Shown: one piece after another, positions 1,154 through 14,394 of the stretch
Position numbering within the stretch: the stretch's first letter is position 1
How the letters are laid out: each line of letters begins with the position of its first letter
Assembly: GCA_043228905.1 (NCBI GenBank)
Contig: JBHGNT010000870.1
Span: 1 to 14,394 of the forward strand
Source of the DNA: Azolla caroliniana
Taxonomy: Eukaryota; Plantae; Polypodiophyta
Length of the DNA stretch: 14,394 nucleotides
Reading direction: 5' to 3'
The notes under the pieces: model-generated
Databases searched by the model: none
What the model was told of the DNA's origin: nothing
Seen by the model: the letters and a program-made list of their open reading frames with translations, nothing else
Translations under genes and position numbers: made by a program

Positions 1154-1623
1154 AGGCGAACAAGATTTAGTGCACACAATATGGAGACACCATTTAGTGA
1201 AGACAATGATTTGATTGGTACATTTGAAAATTAGGAGGAAGCGTCACAATTGTATATTATCTATAGTGGTGATTCTCATGAAAGGAACGATGATAGTGAT
1301 GCAAATAATTCCTAAATGTTTTTTTGTGCAACGATATGTAACAAATTTAGACAACATTTTATTGAATGAAATAAAAAAGTTGATTGTTTTGAAATCTTTT
1401 GTTTATGATTTCATTAGGATCTAAAATACTACTAGTTGTAATTTCTCCTTAAAAATACACAAAGTTACTTTTTGTATTTGGCCAAAATTTTAGCTTTTTC
1501 ATCAAGTTTTCGAGAACATGTGATATTAGTATCAAGGTGTTTTGTGAAATGGCCAAAAAAGCCCCAAAATTAGATAGAATATTACTTATCCTTCCATTTG
1601 TGAACGTGAATGTGTTTTTAGTG

Positions 1624-3650
1624 CTCCAAAGCGTTGATCTAGGAGTGATTTTGTCAGGCAATTAGCGATGTTCGCCTCAGTGTCGATCTTCTGAACTTCG
1701 AGCTTCTTCTCGGTTACTAGCTCCCGAATATGATGATATCGCACCTCAATGTTCTTTGTCTTCGCATGATAGACATGATTATTAATGAGGTGTATTGCGC
1801 TCTGTGAGTCGTAGTAGATGGTAAGCGCTGGATGGTCGGTTCAACTTGTTACTGAGAAGTTGGTTGACAGTCGGTGCAACCAGATTGCTTCCTTCACTGC
1901 CTAATGCTGCTAGGTACTCGACCTTTGTGGTTGACAGGGCCGTGCACTCTTACAGCTTCAACCTCCATGATATGGTGCTGCCTCCATAGGTGAATGTGTA
2001 GCCTGATGTTGACTTCCAATTGTCAAATTTCCGACCTTGTCGGAGTCGGTGTAGCTTCGACGTCGAATTTGCGGATTTGAAAGTCAGTTGTGCATCTTCG
2101 GTTCCTCTTAGGTACCTGAAGATGTGCTTGCCGGCTTCCCAATGCTTCCGTCTTGGGTTTGACATGTACCGGCTAACGACCCCTACGACATAGGCTAGGT
2201 CGGGTTGAGTCACCACCATCGCATACATGATACTTCTTATGACTGATGCGCGAGGTATCTTTCCATTAAGCTCTTTCTCCTCGTTCATCTAAGGAGAGTC
2301 TCTGTCCGATAGTCGGATCGACGTCGAAAGCGGTGTTGGTGTTGGCTTGGAATTTTCCATGTTGAAACGTCTCAACACCCTTCAGATGTAGTCAAACTAG
2401 GAGAGTCGAAGAGTCCGTGTCTTCCGATTTCGCTCTATCCTCATGCCCAACATGTGTCAGCCTTGTCCAAGTTCCTTCATCGCAAACTTGTTGTGAAGGC
2501 TTCACTTTATTTTTCCGATCTCTACTCGATTGCTCCATGCAATGAGCATGTCGTCGATGTATAAGATCAGATAGATCTGGGACTCGTTGGCCAGTTGCCG
2601 AGTATATAAACATGGGTCGGAGTCAGATCGGCGGTATCCAAGCTGCCTGATGTAGGAGGCGAACTTTTGGTATCCTCGACGCTTGTTTTAGGCCATAGAG
2701 ACTTTTCTTCAATCGACATATGAGGTAACTTTCCTACCCCGTCGTCGTGAAGCCGGCCGGTTGAGACATGTAGATGTCTTCTTCCAAATCTCTGTGTTGG
2801 AACCCCATCTTTACGTCCATTTGTTCTAGCTCTAGGTCTTCTGTCGCCATGAGCCTGAGTAGGAGTCGAAGGGTGGTCATCTTGACAACTAGAGAAAATA
2901 TCTCGTCATAATCGACTTCATGTTCTTGCTTGAACCCCTTCGCAACGAGCTGAGCTTTGTATTTGGGCTTCTTTGAATCAGATACATATTTGTATCAGAA
3001 TACCCATTTGCAAGGTAGTGGCTTTCTTCCTGTTGGTAGTTCGACCAACTCCCATGTTTGATTCTGTCGAATCAAGTCCATCTCGGATTAAATGGCTTGT
3101 AGCCATGTATCGGCATTTGGTGCAATTATAACTTCTTCGTATGTGCTTGGTTCACCTGCACTGGTGTAGTTGGCATAGTTGAGGCCCGGTTGATAGAACT
3201 CTGTTGACCTTTTGACTCATTCGGATCTCCTGAGAGCCGGTTTTGCCGGTTCGATTTCTTCAGTCGACTCGGTCGGCCGATCATAATTGCTTGAACTGTC
3301 TTCAGGAGTCCTATTAGATGACTCGTCCCTATAGTAGGATTTCGGTGATGTCATGGCATCCTCCCCTTCTTCGGGATCAATTGACTTAGAGGTAGAAGAC
3401 TTAGCCAACTCGGTTCTATTTTTCCCTTTGGCCTTGGGTGGGTCGGCTCGCCCCTTGTTGAGTTTGCCTTTTTGTCTTTGATGGCTTTGTCTTCGAGTTC
3501 AACTAGTGGACCTCTTACCGATTCGGAGTCGGCGGGTGTGTTGTCGGCTTGTTTGAGTTCAGTTGTTCGTTGAATCTCTGAGTCGGCCCGGTGGGTCGGC
3601 CTTTCTACGATGTCTCTATCGACTTCGAAGGAGACCTTTGTTAAGCACTT
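1624..3650 (-). pseudogene. Ty1/copia (Tnt1-like) pol fragment: INT-RT linker, reverse transcriptase and RNase H, with stops and frameshifts
   Basis: Minus-strand motifs include [73 protein letters not shown] (2544-2570), QPDLAYVVGVVSRYM, KSTSGYTFTYGGSTISW and DSQSAIHL..HAKTKNIEVRYHHIRE..NIANCLTKSL. No gag, integrase core or LTR is present. Confidence 0.95.
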
Positions 3651-3654
3651 GGAT

Positions 3655-4421
3655 TGCACCACGACCAATCATGAAGAAGAACGCATCAACAAGGATGTAG
3701 TATGGCTAAAGAACCCATGAAGAGGAAATGACAAGAGGAAACCCCCCCTCGTCGTAACACCAACCGACACCCCCATCTCCTAATCTACCCCAATCAAAGA
3801 AGTCAACACGGTCTTGCTCCAACAAATATTAAATTTAAAATTACGACTCACATTACGCGAAGTACAGAGCTACACTGGCACCTTCGTGACTGACAACCCC
3901 CAACTACGACCTATACTCGCCAAAGAAATAGAGTTCACACTTGAAGAGCTGCTCAAACTCAACATCCAACCATGGCACGACGTCCTTCGCCGCCTCAATG
4001 GAGGCATGTCAGCAGATTATGGAGAGAAGATACACACCCACATCCCTCTTACGACCACAGTCCCCAAACAACCTGAAGGAACACCGATAGATATATGTGA
4101 AGCTCACTTCGAGAGCGACGACACTAGTTTCACTCTCCCCGTCTGCGTCAACGGCACGACGTGTGACGCGATCATTGACACCAGAGCGGGGGTAAGCATA
4201 ATTAGCTACGAATGCTGGTGTAAGTGGGGGAGCCTAAAAATGCTTCCTTCGGACGTCAAACTCTGAATGGCAGATGGGTCTATCCAACGGCCAGAAGGCA
4301 TGATTCCTGCACACCACTTCACTATCCACGGGGTCGAGTTCAATCTCACCTTCGTCGTCACAAGATCATCCAATCATGTGGCTTACGAGTGTTTACTAGG
4401 GAGGCCATTCCTATGTGAAAG
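3655..4421 (+). pseudogene. Gypsy gag-pol fragment: pre-protease region and most of aspartic protease 1
   Basis: Reads FTLPVCVNGTTCDAIIDTRAGVSIIS (DTG degenerated to DTR) ...VKL*MADGS...FVV...YECLLGRPFL in the frame of ORF 3814-4266, continuing through the TGA at 4264-4266. Confidence 0.9.
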
Positions 4422-4867: not shown

Positions 4868-4872
4868 TCTAT

Positions 4873-4890
4873 TTGCGCCGCTGTTGGGGA
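4873..4890 (+). promoter_or_regulatory. Primer binding site, tRNA-Asp type (degenerate)
   Basis: TTGCGCCGCTGTTGGGGA matches 14/18 positions of TGGCGCCGTTGCCGGGGA, the complement of the plant tRNA-Asp 3' end used by Athila-type elements. It lies 5 nt after the putative LTR CA end. Confidence 0.7.
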
Positions 4891-5213
4891 TACGACTGGC
4901 GCTTGAAGCCGACTTCGAGTGGCCAAACACTCGTAGGCAACCCACTTAATGAGGGAAGAAATCGAAAGGAAACCACCATTTGTGTTAATTAAAATTCTCA
5001 CTATTTCACGTTTTCATTAAGTTAATTTTCTGTTTTTTTTTCCCCCTCAATCGACTGGACATTAGCAAACTATTCGTCCGGTTAATGCTAAGCATGGTTG
5101 AGATTTAGCCGTTGCAGGGCAAGAATAATCACCGCGATTCTCGTTGATTACGATCATCCTACAGGACACAAAATGACCGTTGGCACCAAAAAATTCAAAT
5201 TTCCTACTCAAAG

Positions 5214-5826
5214 TTCGTCGAAAGATCAAGTTTGACAAGAGACCATCTTTCGACGAAAGATCAAAGTTCTCCAAACCCACATCTTTCGACAAACCCGTAA
5301 AGCTTGACAAGAGGATATCTTTTGACGGAAGATTATCCTTCATCAAAAGATCAGAGTTCGATAAGGGGAACATCTTTTGACGAAAGATCAAAGTTTGCCA
5401 AACCCACATCCTTCGACAAAAGATCAAAGTTTGCCAAACCCTCATCCTTCGACAAAAGATCAAAGTTTGCCAAACCCACATATTTCGACGAAAGATCAAA
5501 GTTTGCCAAACCCACATATTTCAACAAAAGATCAAAGTCTGCTAAACCCACAAAGTTCGACGAAAGATCATCTTTCGACAAACCCGTAAAGCTTGACAAG
5601 AGGATATCTTTCGACGGAAGATCATCCTTTGTTGAAAGATCAGAGTTCGATAAGGGGAACATCTTTTGACGAAAGATCAAAGTTTGCCAAACCCACATCC
5701 TTCGACGGAAGATCAAAGTTTGCCAAACCCACATCTTTCGATGAAAGATCAAAGTCGGCCAAACCCACAAAGTTTGATAAAAGATCATCTTTCGAAGAAC
5801 CCGCAAAGCTTGACAAGAGAACATGA
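5214..5826 (+). repeat. Hierarchical tandem array in the 5' leader (18-bp monomers, 36-bp dimers, 289-bp higher-order repeat)
   Basis: Monomers include TTCGACGAAAGATCAAAG, TTTGCCAAACCCACATCT, TTCGACAAACCCGTAAAG and CTTGACAAGAGGATATCT, about 34 in total. The block ending GGGGAACATCTTTTGA recurs at 5380 and 5669. Confidence 0.95.
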
Positions 5827-8067
5827 TCGGATCCTCATGGACATGGATGTTCAAAACCTGACCCACATGCCAGGAGGAGTTCACACAAACCAACCAAACA
5901 CACAGTGCTGACCCATCTAACCCGACTCGATACCACGGAGGGTGGTTAACCCTAGGGACGCTACCAAACATGAACCTCCCATCGAACCTAGCAATCAAAG
6001 CACCTCTCAACACACCCCCACTATAGGAGAGCCCAATGGCAGACCCGCTCAGTGTAGAGCGACACATACAGGATGCCGCACAAGAGTTACGTGTGATAGA
6101 ACAAGAAATCAATATATGGACGATGCAACTCTCAAAAGGGGGACAATAGGAAATCATCACCTGAGATATTGAAGCCACTTTGGCAGAAAGGAAAGACATG
6201 TTCACATGAGTGCAACAAAAACTTAACCTCCTAGAAGCATCGTCACATACGCATTGTCAAGACTGCGAGCCTAGCCTTGCACCGCATTCGAGCACAGTGG
6301 GCAACAGCCCAAACGAAGCACACAGGCGACGACACCCGACATCGCCACCTATGGACACAACCCCTACACCCGACAAAACTACCCCAACACCCCCGAATGC
6401 CGAACTCGCACTAGCATTACAATCCATCCAAACCCTCGTGGCATTGATGGAAAAAGAACAAGCACCCACGGACAATTCGAGAAACCCCACAAACGACAAC
6501 GGGAAGAGCACTTCCATTTCTAAACTAGTACCTCGTTTTATTGGTTTCGGTGACGCATATGACCATGTAGAGAGGTTCAAGTAGATATGTCGAGCTTATG
6601 AATCCCTCATAGAGACTACCAAAGTAGCTGCATTCGGACTTACACTCGACGACCAAGCCGGAATTTGGTTTAAGACCCTGAATGAGGACATCGTCGCGGA
6701 CTTCGAAAATGTCATTGAAGATTTCTTGATAAACTTCGCTTGTCGAGGGAATAAATGGAACCCGATCGACCAACTTTTCACCCTCAAGCAAGAAGCGAAC
6801 GAGATTGTCAGGGACTACATACGCAGCATGAAAATCCTTCACCATCATTGTAGCCCGGGGGACAAGATGTCAGACGACAAATTGATGAGCCACTTCATCA
6901 ATGGGTTGTTTGACCTGACACTCCAAAATTTCCTGATTGCCAAGATGTGTCAGTCATTCGCTGAAGCTTCCACGGTAGTGATGACTTTCGAAGATTCAAT
7001 GAGCGGGTTACGGATACCCACCCAAGCGCCTACGAAAAATCATGAGAAGCCCTCGGATCCCACTCCACCCACACCGCCAAGACCACCCCGTATAGAAAGA
7101 CCCCAAGTGAAAATGTAAGGTGTATGGTGTGCCACGACCATCACACGGGGCATGAGTGTCCCCTCCTCCACCAAGGACGGCCTCAATACTATAAGTGGTG
7201 CAAAGCCTTCGTGATGCATTCTCAAGAGAACTGCTGGCAAGCCCCAAACGGAAGGTATAGCCAAACACCAATGGTCAAGTTCCCACAATCACCTGCACCG
7301 CTTAGCTGCCCACAACTACCGGCAATACTTCCCCAACAACCCCCACTACCGCGCATTGGAGCCTGCCTCGCCGAACTAGAATACACCACCGATAACCCAA
7401 CCCAAGTTGGGAGGGCGCCCCCGAATATGAAGATTCATATCGGGAGTATGGTGTTGAAGAAGAGGAGCTTTCCCACTTTGTGGACTTCGAAGGCGACCAA
7501 ATACCAATGTACGTCCTAAGAGGAGAACAAAGGGGCCTGTCGATGGGATATCGCAACAATAATGGTCTAAGAAGGTCAGAATTGAAATGCTTCAATTGCC
7601 AAGGCCCACACATGGTTAGCGAGTGCCCAACCAAACATGAGTACTACAACAGGATGGCACAACGACCACGACACCCCCCACTCGAAACACCCCGACAACC
7701 ACTGGTACAAAGTCTCACCCAACAGTCACATGACCTTATCGAGTGGTTCCAAAGAGAAGAATCATGCCCAGGGTGTGGTAAAGAGCACTTAATACCATTT
7801 GTTATCTATCGTGCCATCAACGGTGGGCGCCAACGTCATTACACGAACTCAAAGAATAGCTCATAACTTAAAGTATCACGACCAAGACCTCCCCATGACT
7901 ACGTGTAAGAGACGAAAATCCAAAAAAAAATGCATCCACACGGACCTCAAAGCAAGATCAAGAACCGGAGGGAGACGTAGAAACGATACCTATCAACCCT
8001 AACCAAGAGCTGCCAGCACACCTAGCATCATACCCAAACCCAGTGGCTGAAAAACAAAAGGTCAAAG
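5823..8067 (+). pseudogene. gag: Gypsy gag with coiled-coil N-terminus, retrotransposon capsid domain and four Zn knuckles; stops and frameshifts
   Basis: ATG at 5823 is in frame with ORFs 6210-6584 and 6726-7118 through transition-type stops. Capsid-like sequence reads PRFIGFGDAYDHVERF..AGIWFKTL..LKQEANEIVRDYIRSM..FINGL. CX2CX3HX4C knuckles lie at 7121-7159 and 7588-7626, with degenerate ones at 7190-7234 and 7765-7800. A post-gag ANVITRTQ motif follows. Confidence 0.88.
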
Positions 8068-11000
8068 CTGCCTTGTGATGGACTTTGGGAAGGATACAAT
8101 CTATATGCGTAAAAACAACAAAACCTTCCGCATCAAAGCATACACACAAAAAGTTCATGAACAAGAAGGTAGTCCTCTCGTGGACGACTGGTCAGAAACC
8201 ACCGAGTTCGAGAACAACCTCCTAGCATGCAATCCCACAAAGACAATTCAAATCTTGGCTAGGGGTCAACCCCTTCCCCAAAATCCACTACCCCAAGGAC
8301 AGAGAATGCGAGGGAAGACCAATCCGTGGCCTCTGATGCGTCCGAGATGAATTGGGTGCACACTCTTGCCATGACCGATGCAATGTACCCCATTGGTACA
8401 AAGTGTTGCGATGAGGATGGAGACATGATTTCGTGTTTTAATGTCACTACTCTCGTACCCCAACGAAAATAGGTGGACGTAAAAGACGAAGACCTAGCGC
8501 AACGAATCACGTGCAAGGAAGAGAATGCGACCACTCGGAAGACCTCGACAAAAGTGGACTTCCCGGAGCAATTCAAACCTATGAACAAGGAAGTAGGGCA
8601 GTGGCTTGTAAGAGACCACAACACACCCCTAACATCCTAGGCGAGGCATGCGACGGACCGACGAGAGATAAAGAAATCAATCTCGGAAATGGGGTGGACC
8701 CCAAACAAGTGTTCATTGCCATGAATCTCCAGTCGGACGAGGAGATGTCCTTGATCACCCTTCTCATAGAATTTAGAGACGTGTTCGCATGGTCGTATGT
8801 AGATATGAAAGGTGTACCGGCCGAAGTCGTCACCCATAGCATCCCCATGCGAGCCGACGGCCGCCCAATTCGACAAAGACCGCGCCCAATGAACCCTAAC
8901 TATGCTCAACAAGTAAAAGCCGAAATCAATAAAATGTTAGACGTTGACATCATCTACCCGATTGAGCAAACAACTTGGGTCTCCCCGATCGTAGTCATCT
9001 CGAAGAAGAATGGCCAAATCCGCATATGTGTTGACTATTGACAAGTCAACGACGCCACCATCAAAGACAACTACCCGATACCTTACATCGAGCACTTACT
9101 CGAAAGAGTTGCAGGAGCAAAAGCCTATAGCTTCATCAATGGGTTCTCTGGGTACAACCAAATCTCGGTGGTGCCCGAAGATCAACACAAGATGGCCTTT
9201 GCAACCGAATTTGGTACGTTCGCGTACAAACAGATGCCTTTCAGGCTCACAAGTGCCCTAAGCACCTATCAAAGGGTAGCATACCACATCTTCACATCAA
9301 GGTTACGACAAGGAGTGGAGTCCTACGTTGATGATTTATGTTGCCATTCGAAATGGCATGCCCACCTGGCACTACTCCGCTTGACGTTTGAAAAGTGCAG
9401 GGAATATCAACTCTCCCTCAACTCTCTCAAGTGTCAATTCTTGGTCAAACATGGAATCATATTAGGTCATGTTGTGTCCCGACATGGGATCTCGACTTAT
9501 GAGGTAAAAGCAAAGCTCATCCTTGACATGCCACCTCCCGCGAACAAGAAACAACTACAAGGATTCATGGGGTACGTAGGTTACTATACACGCTTCATTA
9601 AGATGTTCGTAGACAAAGCAAGACCACTCTACGCATTACTAAAGCAGTACACCTGGACGGAAGAGTGCGCCCGTTCGTTCGAACTCTTGAGTGAGTGCAT
9701 AACTAAAGCCCCCATCCACCGATCCCCAGACTAGAACAAAGAGTTCCATGTTCACAGTGATGCTTCCACCTTTGCGATTGGCGCAATACTCGCTCAACCT
9801 GGCGAAGGTGCACTTGATCTACCAATCACCTTTTCTAGCCGCCAATTGAACTCTACGGAACGAAATTACTCCACAACGGAACGAGAAGCTTTAGGAATGG
9901 TTTACAACGTGAAGAAGTTCCGACATTACCTCTTGGCGTCATGTTTCTCATTTTTTGTAGATCATCAAGCCCTCCTCTACTTGGTAAACAAGACTCACGC
10001 CACAAGACACATATCACGATGGATCGTAACTCTACTCGAGTTCGATTTCAAGGTGGTGGTGAGAAAAGGAAAAGACCATGTACTCGCCGATCATTTCTCA
10101 CGAATACCAAATGGGGAAGAAGCCACTGGCATTGATGATGAAATGCCAGATGCTGCATTATTCACGATTGACATTGTACCATCATGGGCATCCGACATTG
10201 TTCATGTCTTAACCAAAGGAGCATCCTTCCTAAAACAACTAAGTCGGGCACAAACACATGTCTTGTTAAGAAAATGTGGCCCCTTCACGATGCTCAGAGG
10301 CAGCTTGTATCGAAGAGGCAACGATTATGTACTTCAAAGGTGTGTAGCCGACCATGATGCCATCACTATCCTCGAACAAGCTCATTATGGAAGCGGAAGC
10401 GGTCATTTCAATAATGAGTCCACCGCACGCAAGATCCTCCAGTCTGACCTATGGTGGCCAACACTATTCAAAGACACATACGAGTATGTACGCCGGTGTG
10501 ATGAGTGTCAACGTTTCAAGCACCCGTTTAAAGCGGGTTTCAACACACTAAACCCGGTAGTGGCTTGGCAACCATTCGAGAAATGGGGTATCGACTTTAT
10601 CAGCCCAATTAGTCCAGCTTCCAACCTCAATAGATACATAATCACCACCACTGATTATGCTACCAAGTGGGCTGAAGCCAAATATTGTGTTAATGCTGAT
10701 GCACGTCGCACCGCCAAATTCCTATTCGAAAATGTCATCACACGGTTTGGATGTCCGCTTGAGATCATTAGCAACCAAGGCTCCCATTTCCTCAATGAGG
10801 TGATAACACACCTACTAGGCGAGTTTATGGTGATGAACCGCAAGAGCTCCCCTTATTACCCCCGGTGCAACAGACAAGCGAAAAGCACTAATAAGGTGTT
10901 GTGCGCAGTACTCACGAAGATAATTGCAGCTTCGCGGTCCGATTGGAGCACCAAACTTCAAGCCGCATTGTGGGCCTTCCGCACCGCCTACAAAGTAGCA

Positions 11001-11495
11001 ACGCGCAACATACCATTCAAACTGGTATATGGACAAGAGGAGGTACATCCCATCGAGTTCCTCGTCCCTAGCCTTAGGATAGCTATTCAAGAACGATGGG
11101 ATGGGAACCTCCTCCCGTCATGCCTAGAGAACCTAGAACGGTTGACCGAAACTCGCCTTCTCGCATTCCAAGCACTCTTGACAGAGAAAGCCAATAGAAA
11201 GGCGTAGCACGAATACAAAGTAAGGGATAAAGATCTAGTTGAAGGGGACATGGCTCTCAAATTCGCCTCTCAACGACGCAAGAAGAAGCTCATATTACGA
11301 GGTGAAGGCCCCTACGTAGTCTCAGAGATTACCAAGACAAGAGCATGTCGAATACGCACACTCGAAGGAATCGACATCCCATGATTCATCAATGGGAGCA
11401 AGCTCAAACGTTACTACGGACCCTTCACCCTGGAAGCCCTGCTCACGGCTCGAAAACAAGAAGTGGAAGCCAAACTTAAAGCATTCGAAGGCTAA
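8068..11495 (+). pseudogene. pol: Gypsy pol: protease 1 C-terminal strand, RT, RNase H and integrase with GPY/F region; inactive
   Basis: Protease end LVMDFGKD. RT motifs WVSPIVVISKKNGQIRICVDY, SFINGFSGYNQI (D>N), QMPF and YVDD (9324-9335). RNase H motifs SDAS, EREAL, VDHQ, LADH. Integrase HHCC (H..GHF..CDECQR), WGIDF, ISNQG (D>N), NRQAKSTN (E>K), and GEGPY..INGSKLKRYY. In-frame stops end at 9041, 9734 and 11207, with another near 11384. Confidence 0.96.
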
Positions 11496-11907
11496 ATGGC
11501 CCGACTAGAAACCAACCTTCCCAATGCGCAAGCGAAACTGAAAAGACAAGGTGAAGCCCACTCTACGGCTATTGCTAGGTCGACATACCCTAATGACGTG
11601 ACAACACACCTACCATGCTTCGCCGAAGGCGTATCCCTAACAACAATAATCGATACCGGAGCATCACTAACCCTTTTCTCTTTCGAAACGTGGGAGCATC
11701 TAGGTTTCCCGGACCTCGAAGCGTGCAACGACAACTTCCTTGGCTTCAATGGTTTGACATCACGCTGCCTCGGAGCCTTTGTGTATAACATCAAGACACA
11801 ATATAGTGACCACTCAATCTGAGTTCGGATCCTCCCACCGAAAGTGTTGTACACCCTGTGCCTCCTCGGTTTGGATTGGTGTCACATAAGTGAATCTCTC
11901 TTGTTAC

Positions 11908-12476
11908 CATAGATTAACACATGTGTGATATTCGTAATATTCAAGAATACGAAATCGCCCCAAGAATATTATAAATCCATTCGTTTTATTTAAATAAATT
12001 TATTTCACCAAAAAATGAACAATTATTCATTAGTTTATGAAACTTATTTTAATTAGCTAATTAATTAATTAATTTTTAAAAATAAATATATTTATATTTA
12101 TTATAAAAATATGATTAGTGTGAACTTTCAAGTCCTATTTTTAATGTCAAGATAAAAATATCCATAAATTTTGAGGAAATAAAAAGTGAAAAATTAATGA
12201 ACTTTTATTTTATTTTATTTATTTATTAAAAATAAAATGAATACTTATAGTTATAAGTTACACATTTATTATAAAAATTGAGTACTCTCAAGTCCCTCTT
12301 TTATTATCCCTATTTATTGTCAAGTTCCTTTTTTTTATCCCAAGAAATTTAAAAAGATAAATTTATGTACTCTTTTTTGTTTTTTTTTGTCAAACGAATA
12401 CTTGACCACCCATTCATATTCGTATTCATTTGCCTTCGAATGGGAAACCCCATGAATGCGAATATGTCAATCTATG
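11908..12476. mobile_element. 569-bp non-autonomous DNA transposon (MITE), probably hAT superfamily
   Basis: Perfect 8-bp TSD CTTGTTAC at 11900-11907 and 12477-12484. TIRs CATAGATTAACACAT and ATATGTCAATCTATG match at 13/15. ATATTCGTA/GAATACGAA-type subterminal motifs are present, the interior is very AT-rich, and excision restores the host reading frame. Confidence 0.93.
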
Positions 12477-12570
12477 CTTGTTACCAAGCAAGAACATTGT
12501 TTCCTTCCAAACTGCAAATGGTGTGAAGTTCGAGAAACTCGTTACAACAACACTCGAACCACGTCCCACC

Positions 12571-12966
12571 AATCTCGATGAACCCCAGAATGTGAAAACA
12601 CCCAACCAAAAAGCACTCGCGCCACCACCGGCCACCCAAGGTCAGAGTAATGCTAACATTGGAACAAGGACATCCACGCCATGCAAGTGGGTGAATGTCC
12701 ACGCGACTTTCACCGAAGGACCCCGCCGCGGAGAACATGCTGTTTGGTGACTCAGAAAACAACTCACAAATCTCGATGAACCCCAGAATGTGAAAACACC
12801 CAACCAAAAAGCACTCGCGCCACCACCGGCCACCCAAGGTCAGAGTAATGCTAACATTGGAACAAGGACATCCACGCCATGCAAGTGGGTGAATGTCCAC
12901 GCGACTTTCACCGAAGGACCCCGCCGCGGAGAACATGCTGTTTGGTGACTCAGAAAACAACTCACA
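12571..12966 (+). repeat. Exact 198-bp tandem duplication
   Basis: 12571-12768 equals 12769-12966 with no mismatch seen. There is AA microhomology at the junction, and the length is 66 codons. Confidence 0.96.
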
Positions 12967-14139
12967 AACGCCCAAGGTTGGCACAAAGGTGCCACTCGCT
13001 TCTAGGTCCTGAAACGAAGCCGACGCCCCACCCACGTCCATACCACGACTGCACGGGACACCCGACAACTGTGCACATTGACCAAATACCCCGCCTAGGT
13101 TAAGGCCATAGACCTCGACCGAACTCAGCAACTAGGAGGCCGAATTCCCCATAGAACTGCCTTATATGCCCCCCCTTTCTCCCCTAAAAAGACGTCACGG
13201 GTCTGGGTCCTTAAAGGCATACAAAGGCCCTCTGACAACACTCAAACAACACACCCCCAGCCCCAACCCCACCGCTCCAACCCGACCCAAAAGCCCCTAA
13301 CGTTCCTAAACTCTCACAAAACCCTCGGTGGATCCCCGTCAACTCTACCGTCCGCACATAAATCTTAGTCCACCCCACACCCCTTTACCCCCTCACCATG
13401 CCTTATGTCACTTTGTTCATCAACTACTCGACCTGTCTTCTCCCTCGACCTCTGTTACCGTCCCCATTAGACAATAATTTATTTATTCATTACTCTTAAT
13501 GTCCCCATCCGCAAATTTTCGTTTTTTTGTCCATTTATTCATATTTACCATCTATTTTCTTTCTAATGGTTACCGTTTATTTTTAGTGGCCCCTCGACCG
13601 GTTATTTATACTCGTTTTCTATCTAATTTCTATTTCTTATGTTTCGTTCTTTTAAATATTATTTTTCATACTTAATTTTAGGTTCTTGTTAATTCTTTCC
13701 CTCTCTTTTGCCCTCCTCCCTCCACTCCTCTTTCCCCCTCACCACTCTCTCTTCTCCCTCCCTACTCTTCCACCTCCCTCTGTGTTGCGCCCCAACCCCT
13801 CTCGTTCTGCACTCTACCCTTGTTTTCTCTCCCCCCTTTTGATTACCGCTCTCCTCCACGCACTGCTTCTCGCCACCACCTCCTCCTCGGTCTGTTGCAA
13901 ACTCCCTCGGGTAGGTCTCAAATCTGTTTTTTTTGTGCTCTCTCACTCGGCCCCCGCCAACGCCACATGTTGTCCACAACCCACCCCCTGTGACAACCAC
14001 GACGACTACCATGTCGTTTCTGCCAGCCTCTTGTCGCTTGCGATCACTTCTGGACATTTCACCCACGGCCTCGTTTCATCCCCCGACAATCCTCTCTTTG
14101 AATCACCCCCCGTTCGACGAGTGAATCGTTTCTCGTCCT

Positions 14140-14342
14140 GGTTCGAAGAGAGGCACTCTTCGAACCACTCACCCTCGGTTCGAGGAGAGGCACTCTCGAA
14201 CCCCTCACCCCCGGTTCGAAGAGAGGCACTCTTTGAACCACTCACCCTCGGTTCGAGGAGAGGCACTCTTCGAACCCCTCACCCCTGGTTCGAGGAGAGG
14301 CACTCTTCGAACCACTCCCCCCGGTTCGAAGAGAGGCCCTCG
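14140..14342. repeat. Tandem array of 36-37-bp hairpin units (about 5.5 copies) in the retroelement 3' region
   Basis: Unit GGTTCGAAGAG-AGGCA-CTCTTCGAACC-ACTCACCCTC starts at 14140, 14177, 14213, 14250, 14287 and 14323 (partial). Each has an 11-bp stem, a 5-nt loop and a near-constant 9-10-nt linker. Confidence 0.95.
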
Positions 14343-14394
14343 TTGCCCAAACACAACCTAGACAGTAACACATAAGTCCCTTTAAAAAATAAAT

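Follow-up and report, generated by a model that had tools for sequence, protein, structure and literature searches.

Evidence for a lineage of plant Ty3/gypsy elements with a second retropepsin domain in frame after integrase

LTR retroelements have, to our knowledge, been described with one protease. A Ty3/gypsy element found in a 14,394 nt stretch of Azolla caroliniana DNA (GenBank accession number JBHGNT010000870.1; hereafter the window) raises the question of whether a second aspartic protease can be encoded downstream of integrase and, if so, whether it is a trait of a lineage or belongs to this one copy.

A retropepsin signature in a rearranged copy

Frame +3 was found to run from RNase H via integrase into a linker and then into a retropepsin signature. 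As the original prediction had proposed, the integrase C-terminus (GPY...NGSKLKRYYGP, to ~11423) and the linker are followed in frame by IIDTGAS (Asp at 11652), LGFNG and CLLGLDW (11862-11879), and the domain, designated PR2, matched the retropepsin profile PF13975 (gag-asp_proteas) with an E value of 4.9e-5 and 24.3 bits, the curated cut-off being 28.2. PF13650 also matched 11595-11909 (E 0.0024), the query in both cases being the translation of 11595-11909 with X at stops.

The features of the element lie on the plus strand. The reverse transcriptase (RT) region (8559..9731; PF00078, E 3e-11) is followed by an RNase H (RH) of the native type, with no additional archaeal-type RNase H (9735..10043; PF17917, E 7.8e-28), an integrase (INT) with zinc-binding, core and GPY-type C-terminal domains (10365..11423; PF17921 and PF00665), and a charged linker (11424..11594) predicted from the model of a relative, P0007, to form one 43-residue helix and a short hydrophobic strand. 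The main part of PR2 occupies 11595..11907 (DTG at 11652-11660, LLGLDW at 11862-11879), and its last strands, placed by sequence comparison, are found at 12485..12540, 3' of a 569 bp AT-rich MITE-like insertion (11908..12476, no strand assigned). The basic tail (12541..13385) includes stops, a motif of the form W..K..L.AQG...G....W.PK at ~12889-13008 and a 198 bp tandem duplication (12552-12947).

The TAA at 11493 had been taken for the sole break in the frame, and for a single C>T change from CAA. Neither point held, as family copies differ at two positions of this codon and there are six stops in frame +3, two in RT (9039 and 9732) and four after RNase H (11205, 11382, 11493 and 11820), of which 11205 and 11382 interrupt integrase and 11820 is inside PR2, in addition to the 569 bp insertion that splits PR2. 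Contigs of four runs, which come from three studies and have organism labels A-D, covered INT to PR2 in all bins; among the 40 of 343 rows listed, the window differed from 93-100% of the summed depth at 11493 and from >99% at 11206, indicating for these two positions that the stops are particular to the window copy.

The 569 bp insertion has terminal inverted repeats and an 8 bp target-site duplication (11900-11907 and 12477-12484), from the length of which we take it to be hAT-like. It is absent from another copy, locus L001, and three contigs of run X8 span 11900 into the far flank of the insertion. The left end of this high-copy insertion was found at much greater depth and with unrelated flanks in the read contigs, as expected of a mobile MITE.

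Upstream of RT, the window is rearranged. A fragment of the window's own family (3703..4413) comprises the pre-protease region and the canonical protease, PR1 (about 4096-4413; PF13975, E 2.1e-7), in which there is one stop, the catalytic motif is changed and LLGRPFL stands at the end. When the intact relative P0012 was used in a tblastn search, 3739-4413 corresponded to its residues 731-955 (91%). An LTR candidate identified from the sequence starts with TG at 4414 and extends to ~4867, and directly 3' of it (~4872-4890) is what we take to be a motif resembling a primer-binding site; self-BLAST revealed no partner for this LTR candidate within the window. The gag region, with zinc knuckles, a frameshift and stops (5847..8066; PF03732, E 1.2e-11), ends at the junction at 8066, corresponding to P0012 residue 693, and residues 694-957 are absent there. 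From 8066, the sequence matching P0012 residue 958 onward runs through RT, RH, INT, PR2 and the tail, with the C-terminal end of PR1 and the PR1-RT spacer (P0012 residues 958-1128 in tblastn) at 8066..8577. PR1 in the window is separated from RT, as it sits upstream of the LTR-like segment and gag, and the break in P0012 after residue 955 and the restart at 958 nearly coincide. The LTR-gag segment of the window's own family was thus placed almost precisely where PR1 ends (4413/4414 and 8066), and the simplest reading would be a nested self-insertion, in which a family member inserted at the PR1 end and its 3' part was later lost. As the window is a rearranged nest, it could not alone prove the existence of a two-protease element, and relatives were needed.

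A decayed Ty1/copia RT-RH fragment on the minus strand (1589-3668; PF07727, E 4.6e-21) is cut off at the start of the gypsy PR1 fragment. The window also contains a palindromic repeat array at its start (5-480), an 85 bp duplication (862-1030), 36 bp tandem repeats in the 5' leader (5209-5823) and 36-37 bp palindromic repeats in the 3' region (14140-14345) that are present in L001 too.

Intact relatives and distribution of PR2

A search with the linker and PR2 among 701 candidate proteins (411-2000 aa) yielded one match, P0004 (1981 aa), with 73% identity and full coverage, and alignment A2 used as the query yielded 2 matches among 7992. The P0004 cluster has 22 members, and the 15 members listed include uninterrupted ORFs of 2553, 2553 and 2454 aa that encode gag, zinc knuckles, PR1, RT, RH, INT, linker, PR2 and tail without a stop. 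Three further families include full-length single ORFs of 3185-3270 aa, each encoding both proteases. Intact ORFs, 2454-3270 aa in length and with RT 61-88% identical, are therefore known from four families (P0009/P0010/P0012; P0154/156/160; P0170; P0176/181), and PR2 was found behind INT in 8 families overall when those known from ORFs of at least 700 aa were counted. The distance from the end of integrase to the catalytic Asp was 77-96 residues in all nine proteins measured, and the GAG-PR-RT-RH-INT order of Ty3/gypsy elements was confirmed.

The nested and rearranged state of the window would be consistent with a one-off chimera, in which the integrase of this copy was joined in frame to a piece of some other element. 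However, this reading is refuted by the intact ORFs of the P0004 cluster and the three further families, and the same junction in 8 families and the contig coverage from INT through PR2 in four runs with four organism labels leave it a negligible probability.

In P0009, P0012, P0154, P0170 and P0176, gag, pol, PR2 and the tail are in one ORF without a frameshift or stop that might set the Gag:Pol ratio. In one sublineage of the two-protease clade (P0089, P0154, P0170, P0176 and P0199), the zinc-binding block of integrase is duplicated in tandem, with two G.WWPT motifs ~126 aa apart and two PF17921 stretches, and this doubling was not found in the window's family or in Adiantum P0091 and P0189.

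When 1.84 billion representatives were searched using phmmer, 70 matches were obtained at E <=0.001. The C-terminus of INT, the linker and the start of the protease were encoded in one ORF in P0025, P0029, P0033, P0036, P0038, P0052, P0055 and P0064, several such spanning matches being at 27-34% identity. Among 66 integrase relatives sampled (696-2218 aa), 16 reached at least 250 residues beyond the INT core, and a post-integrase protease was present in 7 of these 16, all within the PR2 branch, and absent from the other 59 of the 66. The named carriers come from a fern, Adiantum nelumboides (P0037 and, with their cluster-mates, P0090 and P0091). PR2 was not seen in the matches from Riccia, Marchantia, Cryptomeria, Pinus, Tanacetum or Vicia, where many ORFs stop at or before the INT C-terminus.

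Scans with P0019 detected one locus in metagenome contigs; prokaryote genomes and viral contigs gave no match. Two clade members, P0025 and P0168, are recorded as Enterobacter and Salmonella proteins from contigs that are very short, and are likely to represent plant DNA inside bacterial assemblies.

In a quick integrase tree of 59 rows (11 of the 70 were dropped because the alignment was too short), one branch of 13 rows (SH-aLRT 99) included all 12 rows labelled as carrying PR2 or as truncated in the linker, together with P0100, the ORF of which ends early and the cluster-mates of which have PR2. The 7 carriers were also on one side of a branch with support of 99 in a quick RT-RH tree (LG+G4; 35 of 37 rows). 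With intact single-ORF relatives in four families and the carriers forming a single branch in two trees, the predicted two-protease lineage, GAG-PR-RT-RH-INT-PR2-tail, is almost certainly real; there is a retropepsin match, and PR2 is present in other copies. PR2 is a clade-defining trait of this lineage and not a chimera, and the window element is a decayed copy from an old plant clade of non-chromovirus Ty3/gypsy elements.

A careful protease tree of 28 rows separated 13 PR2 from 15 PR1 sequences (support 97/94), with the PR1s of PR2 carriers grouping with other plant PR1s, and PR1 and PR2 within one element are 22-28% identical. This bears out the earlier view that PR2 is no recent local copy of PR1, and the sequences indicate that it is old. 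An earlier protease tree, to which a larger number of fragments and unnamed proteins with tandem proteases contributed, did not resolve PR2 (3 changes) and is compatible with a single origin. PR2 could have arisen by an ancient duplication or by capture. Although Ddi1 proteins are the top fold matches of PR2, Pfam prefers retroelement profiles to PF09668, and the data speak neither for nor against an origin from Ddi1. Outside the PR2 group, four unnamed proteins (P0059, P0063, P0067 and P0074) have two adjacent retropepsin-like domains.

Divergence, predicted fold and basic tail

Pairwise identity of PR2 is 21-32% among the four full-length families. Across the 8 families known from long ORFs, 10 of the 114 columns scored have at most one exception; D-[ST]-G keeps its Asp and Gly in 8/8 families, and the Gly of the hydrophobic-hydrophobic-Gly motif is present in 6 of 7. 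In three families with RT 87-88% identical, PR1 is 64-69% identical and PR2 just 21-32%, and between P0009 and P0012, PR2 is 85% identical, close to the spacers (79-87%), whereas PR1, RT, RH and INT are 95-98% identical and a 40-residue tail motif is 100% identical. From these identities, PR2 evolves much faster than PR1. For 65 PR2 codons compared between the window and L001, dN was 0.085 and dS 0.232 (ratio 0.36; Fisher p 0.03), a small sample with 21 differences, taken from two copies that are both decayed; the tail spacer gave a non-significant ratio of 0.53. One Adiantum copy and several of the short fragments, which may be decayed copies, have a changed catalytic motif (DLG, DFG, NSG, DTR or NIG).

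The model of PR2, built on a 12-sequence alignment, has a pLDDT of 75-93 across residues 21-100 and resembles human DDI1 (Foldseek E 3.4e-7), Toxoplasma Ddi1 (VIA Z 13.4, rmsd 2.4, 116 residues aligned) and EIAV protease (Z 12.1), and PR2 is thus predicted to have a retropepsin fold. It shares D-[ST]-G and the hydrophobic-hydrophobic-Gly motif with the retropepsins of retroviruses and LTR elements and the RVP domain of Ddi1, but differs in its position after integrase and in having 14-23% identity to solved structures, and its flap differs in sequence from the L.LADG seen in PR1s. In the model of intact P0007, the INT C-terminal beta domain is followed by a single 43-residue helix (512-554) and then by the protease, beyond which come a disordered stretch and, at the tail motif, a small hairpin-helix, so that a long helical stalk is predicted to join INT to PR2. 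A hydrophobic strand is found 5' of both PR1 and PR2, and could be a cleavage site.

The tails are 199-278 aa long and basic (K+R 12-19%, D+E 4-7%), with W.PK-like repeats. The motif W..K..L.AQG...G....W.PK was detected by pattern in 6 of 7 families and by eye in the seventh, and matched no Pfam family; in the ESM Atlas, it scored 0.92-0.93 to unnamed clusters without a Pfam family, and the INT-PR2 region scored 0.77 to a peptidase A2 cluster, which is a mere lead. The conserved tail motif (window 12889-13008; P0089, P0091, P0093, P0094, P0052 and P0078) is sometimes doubled, and its 40 residues are identical between two subfamilies. Sister non-chromovirus lineages (P0097, P0098, P0101, P0109 and P0123) have in-frame extensions of 590-1040 aa after the integrase core without a protease.

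Possible roles of PR2 and relationship to known elements

The most likely role of PR2, at about even odds, is that of a second active protease acting on the C-terminal end of Pol and so releasing integrase and the basic tail. The PR2 domains of two Pol molecules would be brought together in the virus-like particle via integrase and the stalk and would dimerise, as retropepsins must; the dimer would cut its own hydrophobic N-terminal junction, sites within the tail, or both, yielding integrase in its mature form and a small, basic protein derived from the tail that would probably bind nucleic acid, and PR2 would supply a specificity absent from PR1. This is consistent with the retention of D-[ST]-G at 21-32% identity, the single branch of carriers and the predicted retropepsin fold. 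However, the fast divergence of PR2, its spacer-like identity between P0009 and P0012 and the altered motifs in some copies count against it, as does the ability of sister lineages to process the same Pol by means of PR1 only, which indicates that PR2 is not generally needed.

The same fast divergence beside an invariant catalytic motif would also be expected if PR2 were an active protease directed against host proteins, such as silencing or restriction factors, carried on integrase and the tail and with substrate-binding surfaces diverging in an arms race. PR2 has been retained across a deep clade though PR1 suffices for sister lineages, and plant LTR elements have been reported with host-directed extra enzymes, for example an AlkB demethylase in the available text of one study (PMC12786077). 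However, relaxed constraint explains the fast divergence equally well and the data include no positive selection, the one pair compared giving a dN/dS of 0.36, and this role is rather unlikely. Weak constraint outside the core motifs and the long predicted stalk would suit a mainly binding or regulatory module, in which catalysis is secondary and PR2 dimerises the C-terminal end of Pol or integrase, or binds PR1 and thereby adjusts the level or timing of PR1 activation; retropepsins are obligate dimers. We are doubtful of such a role, as a purely structural one leaves the retention of Asp in 8/8 families unexplained, and PR1 is far more conserved than PR2, unlike a co-evolving interface.

A near-neutral relic, left from an old fusion to a part of some other element and held in frame solely by the need for the tail behind it, is an improbable reading of PR2. 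The spacer-like identity of PR2 between close subfamilies, against 100% in the 40-residue tail motif, would fit a relic, but at 21-32% identity a neutral domain would have lost D-[ST]-G along with the second-strand Gly, L and W, and dN/dS is below 1. If PR2 is instead a live protease, this fern-associated clade may, as a tentative and bolder proposal, be the first lineage of retroelements in which a single polyprotein contains two functional aspartic proteases. PR1 would perform canonical maturation, and a fast-evolving PR2 tethered to integrase would have a specificity of its own, perhaps for proteins of host defence, and would release a new basic W.PK-repeat tail protein.

Profile scans revealed no chromodomain and the branch is apart from rows with SH3_Tf2-1, and PF13456, the archaeal-type RNase H (aRH), was not found in P0004, P0012, P0154, P0170, P0176, P0181 or P0189. 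By its domains, the element is a non-chromovirus Ty3/gypsy element without an additional RNase H. The RT-RH and INT trees placed the clade among aRH-less plant elements, including rows from Marchantia, Riccia, Pinus and Cryptomeria, with the Tanacetum and Vicia rows (Athila-like by inferred label) on a separate branch; the clade could belong to Athila, Tat Z1 or Tat Z2. It resembles Athila and the Tat Z1/Z2 elements of Biryukov and Ustyantsev (PMC10508981), which are non-chromovirus OTA elements without an additional RNase H, in its GAG-PR-RT-RH-INT order, native RNase H alone, absence of a chromodomain and long untranslated regions, but differs in that INT is extended in frame by a second retropepsin and a basic tail. 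The clade also resembles the Tat elements with an additional RNase H (Ogre, Retand, Tat A-L), in which a duplicated enzyme type, in a post-integrase position in some cases, defines a lineage according to the accessible part of PMC13468544. However, the extra domain there is an RNase H and the native copy decays, whereas here it is an in-frame protease and both proteases keep D-[ST]-G. In the portions available, PMC10508981 and PMC13468544 classify elements by aRH position only.

Extra coding capacity downstream of integrase is known from plant and rotifer LTR elements, but the available text of PMC7264820 and PMC5408684 describes env-like, GDSL lipase, DEDDy nuclease and other products encoded mostly by separate ORFs, and in these sources and PMC12786077 the parts available name no post-integrase aspartic protease. 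No description of a second protease in LTR elements was found by phrase searches of the open literature or, in broader searches, in titles and the opening of abstracts, and the post-integrase second protease is apparently undescribed, though an earlier mention is possible. REXdb, in the text available, defines eight domain types and always removed elements with multiple copies of a domain as mispredicted, and the word 'fern' is absent from that main text (PMC6317226). As elements with repeated domains were removed, annotation pipelines would tend to label this clade as nested or chimeric, exposing a blind spot in the annotation of such elements.

A deep clade with two in-frame proteases is a protease counterpart of the well-studied dual-RNase-H Tat elements. 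Its naturally intact ORFs, including those of named Adiantum proteins, allow a direct assay of activity, and it provides a natural system for asking why a retroelement retains a second, divergent retropepsin.
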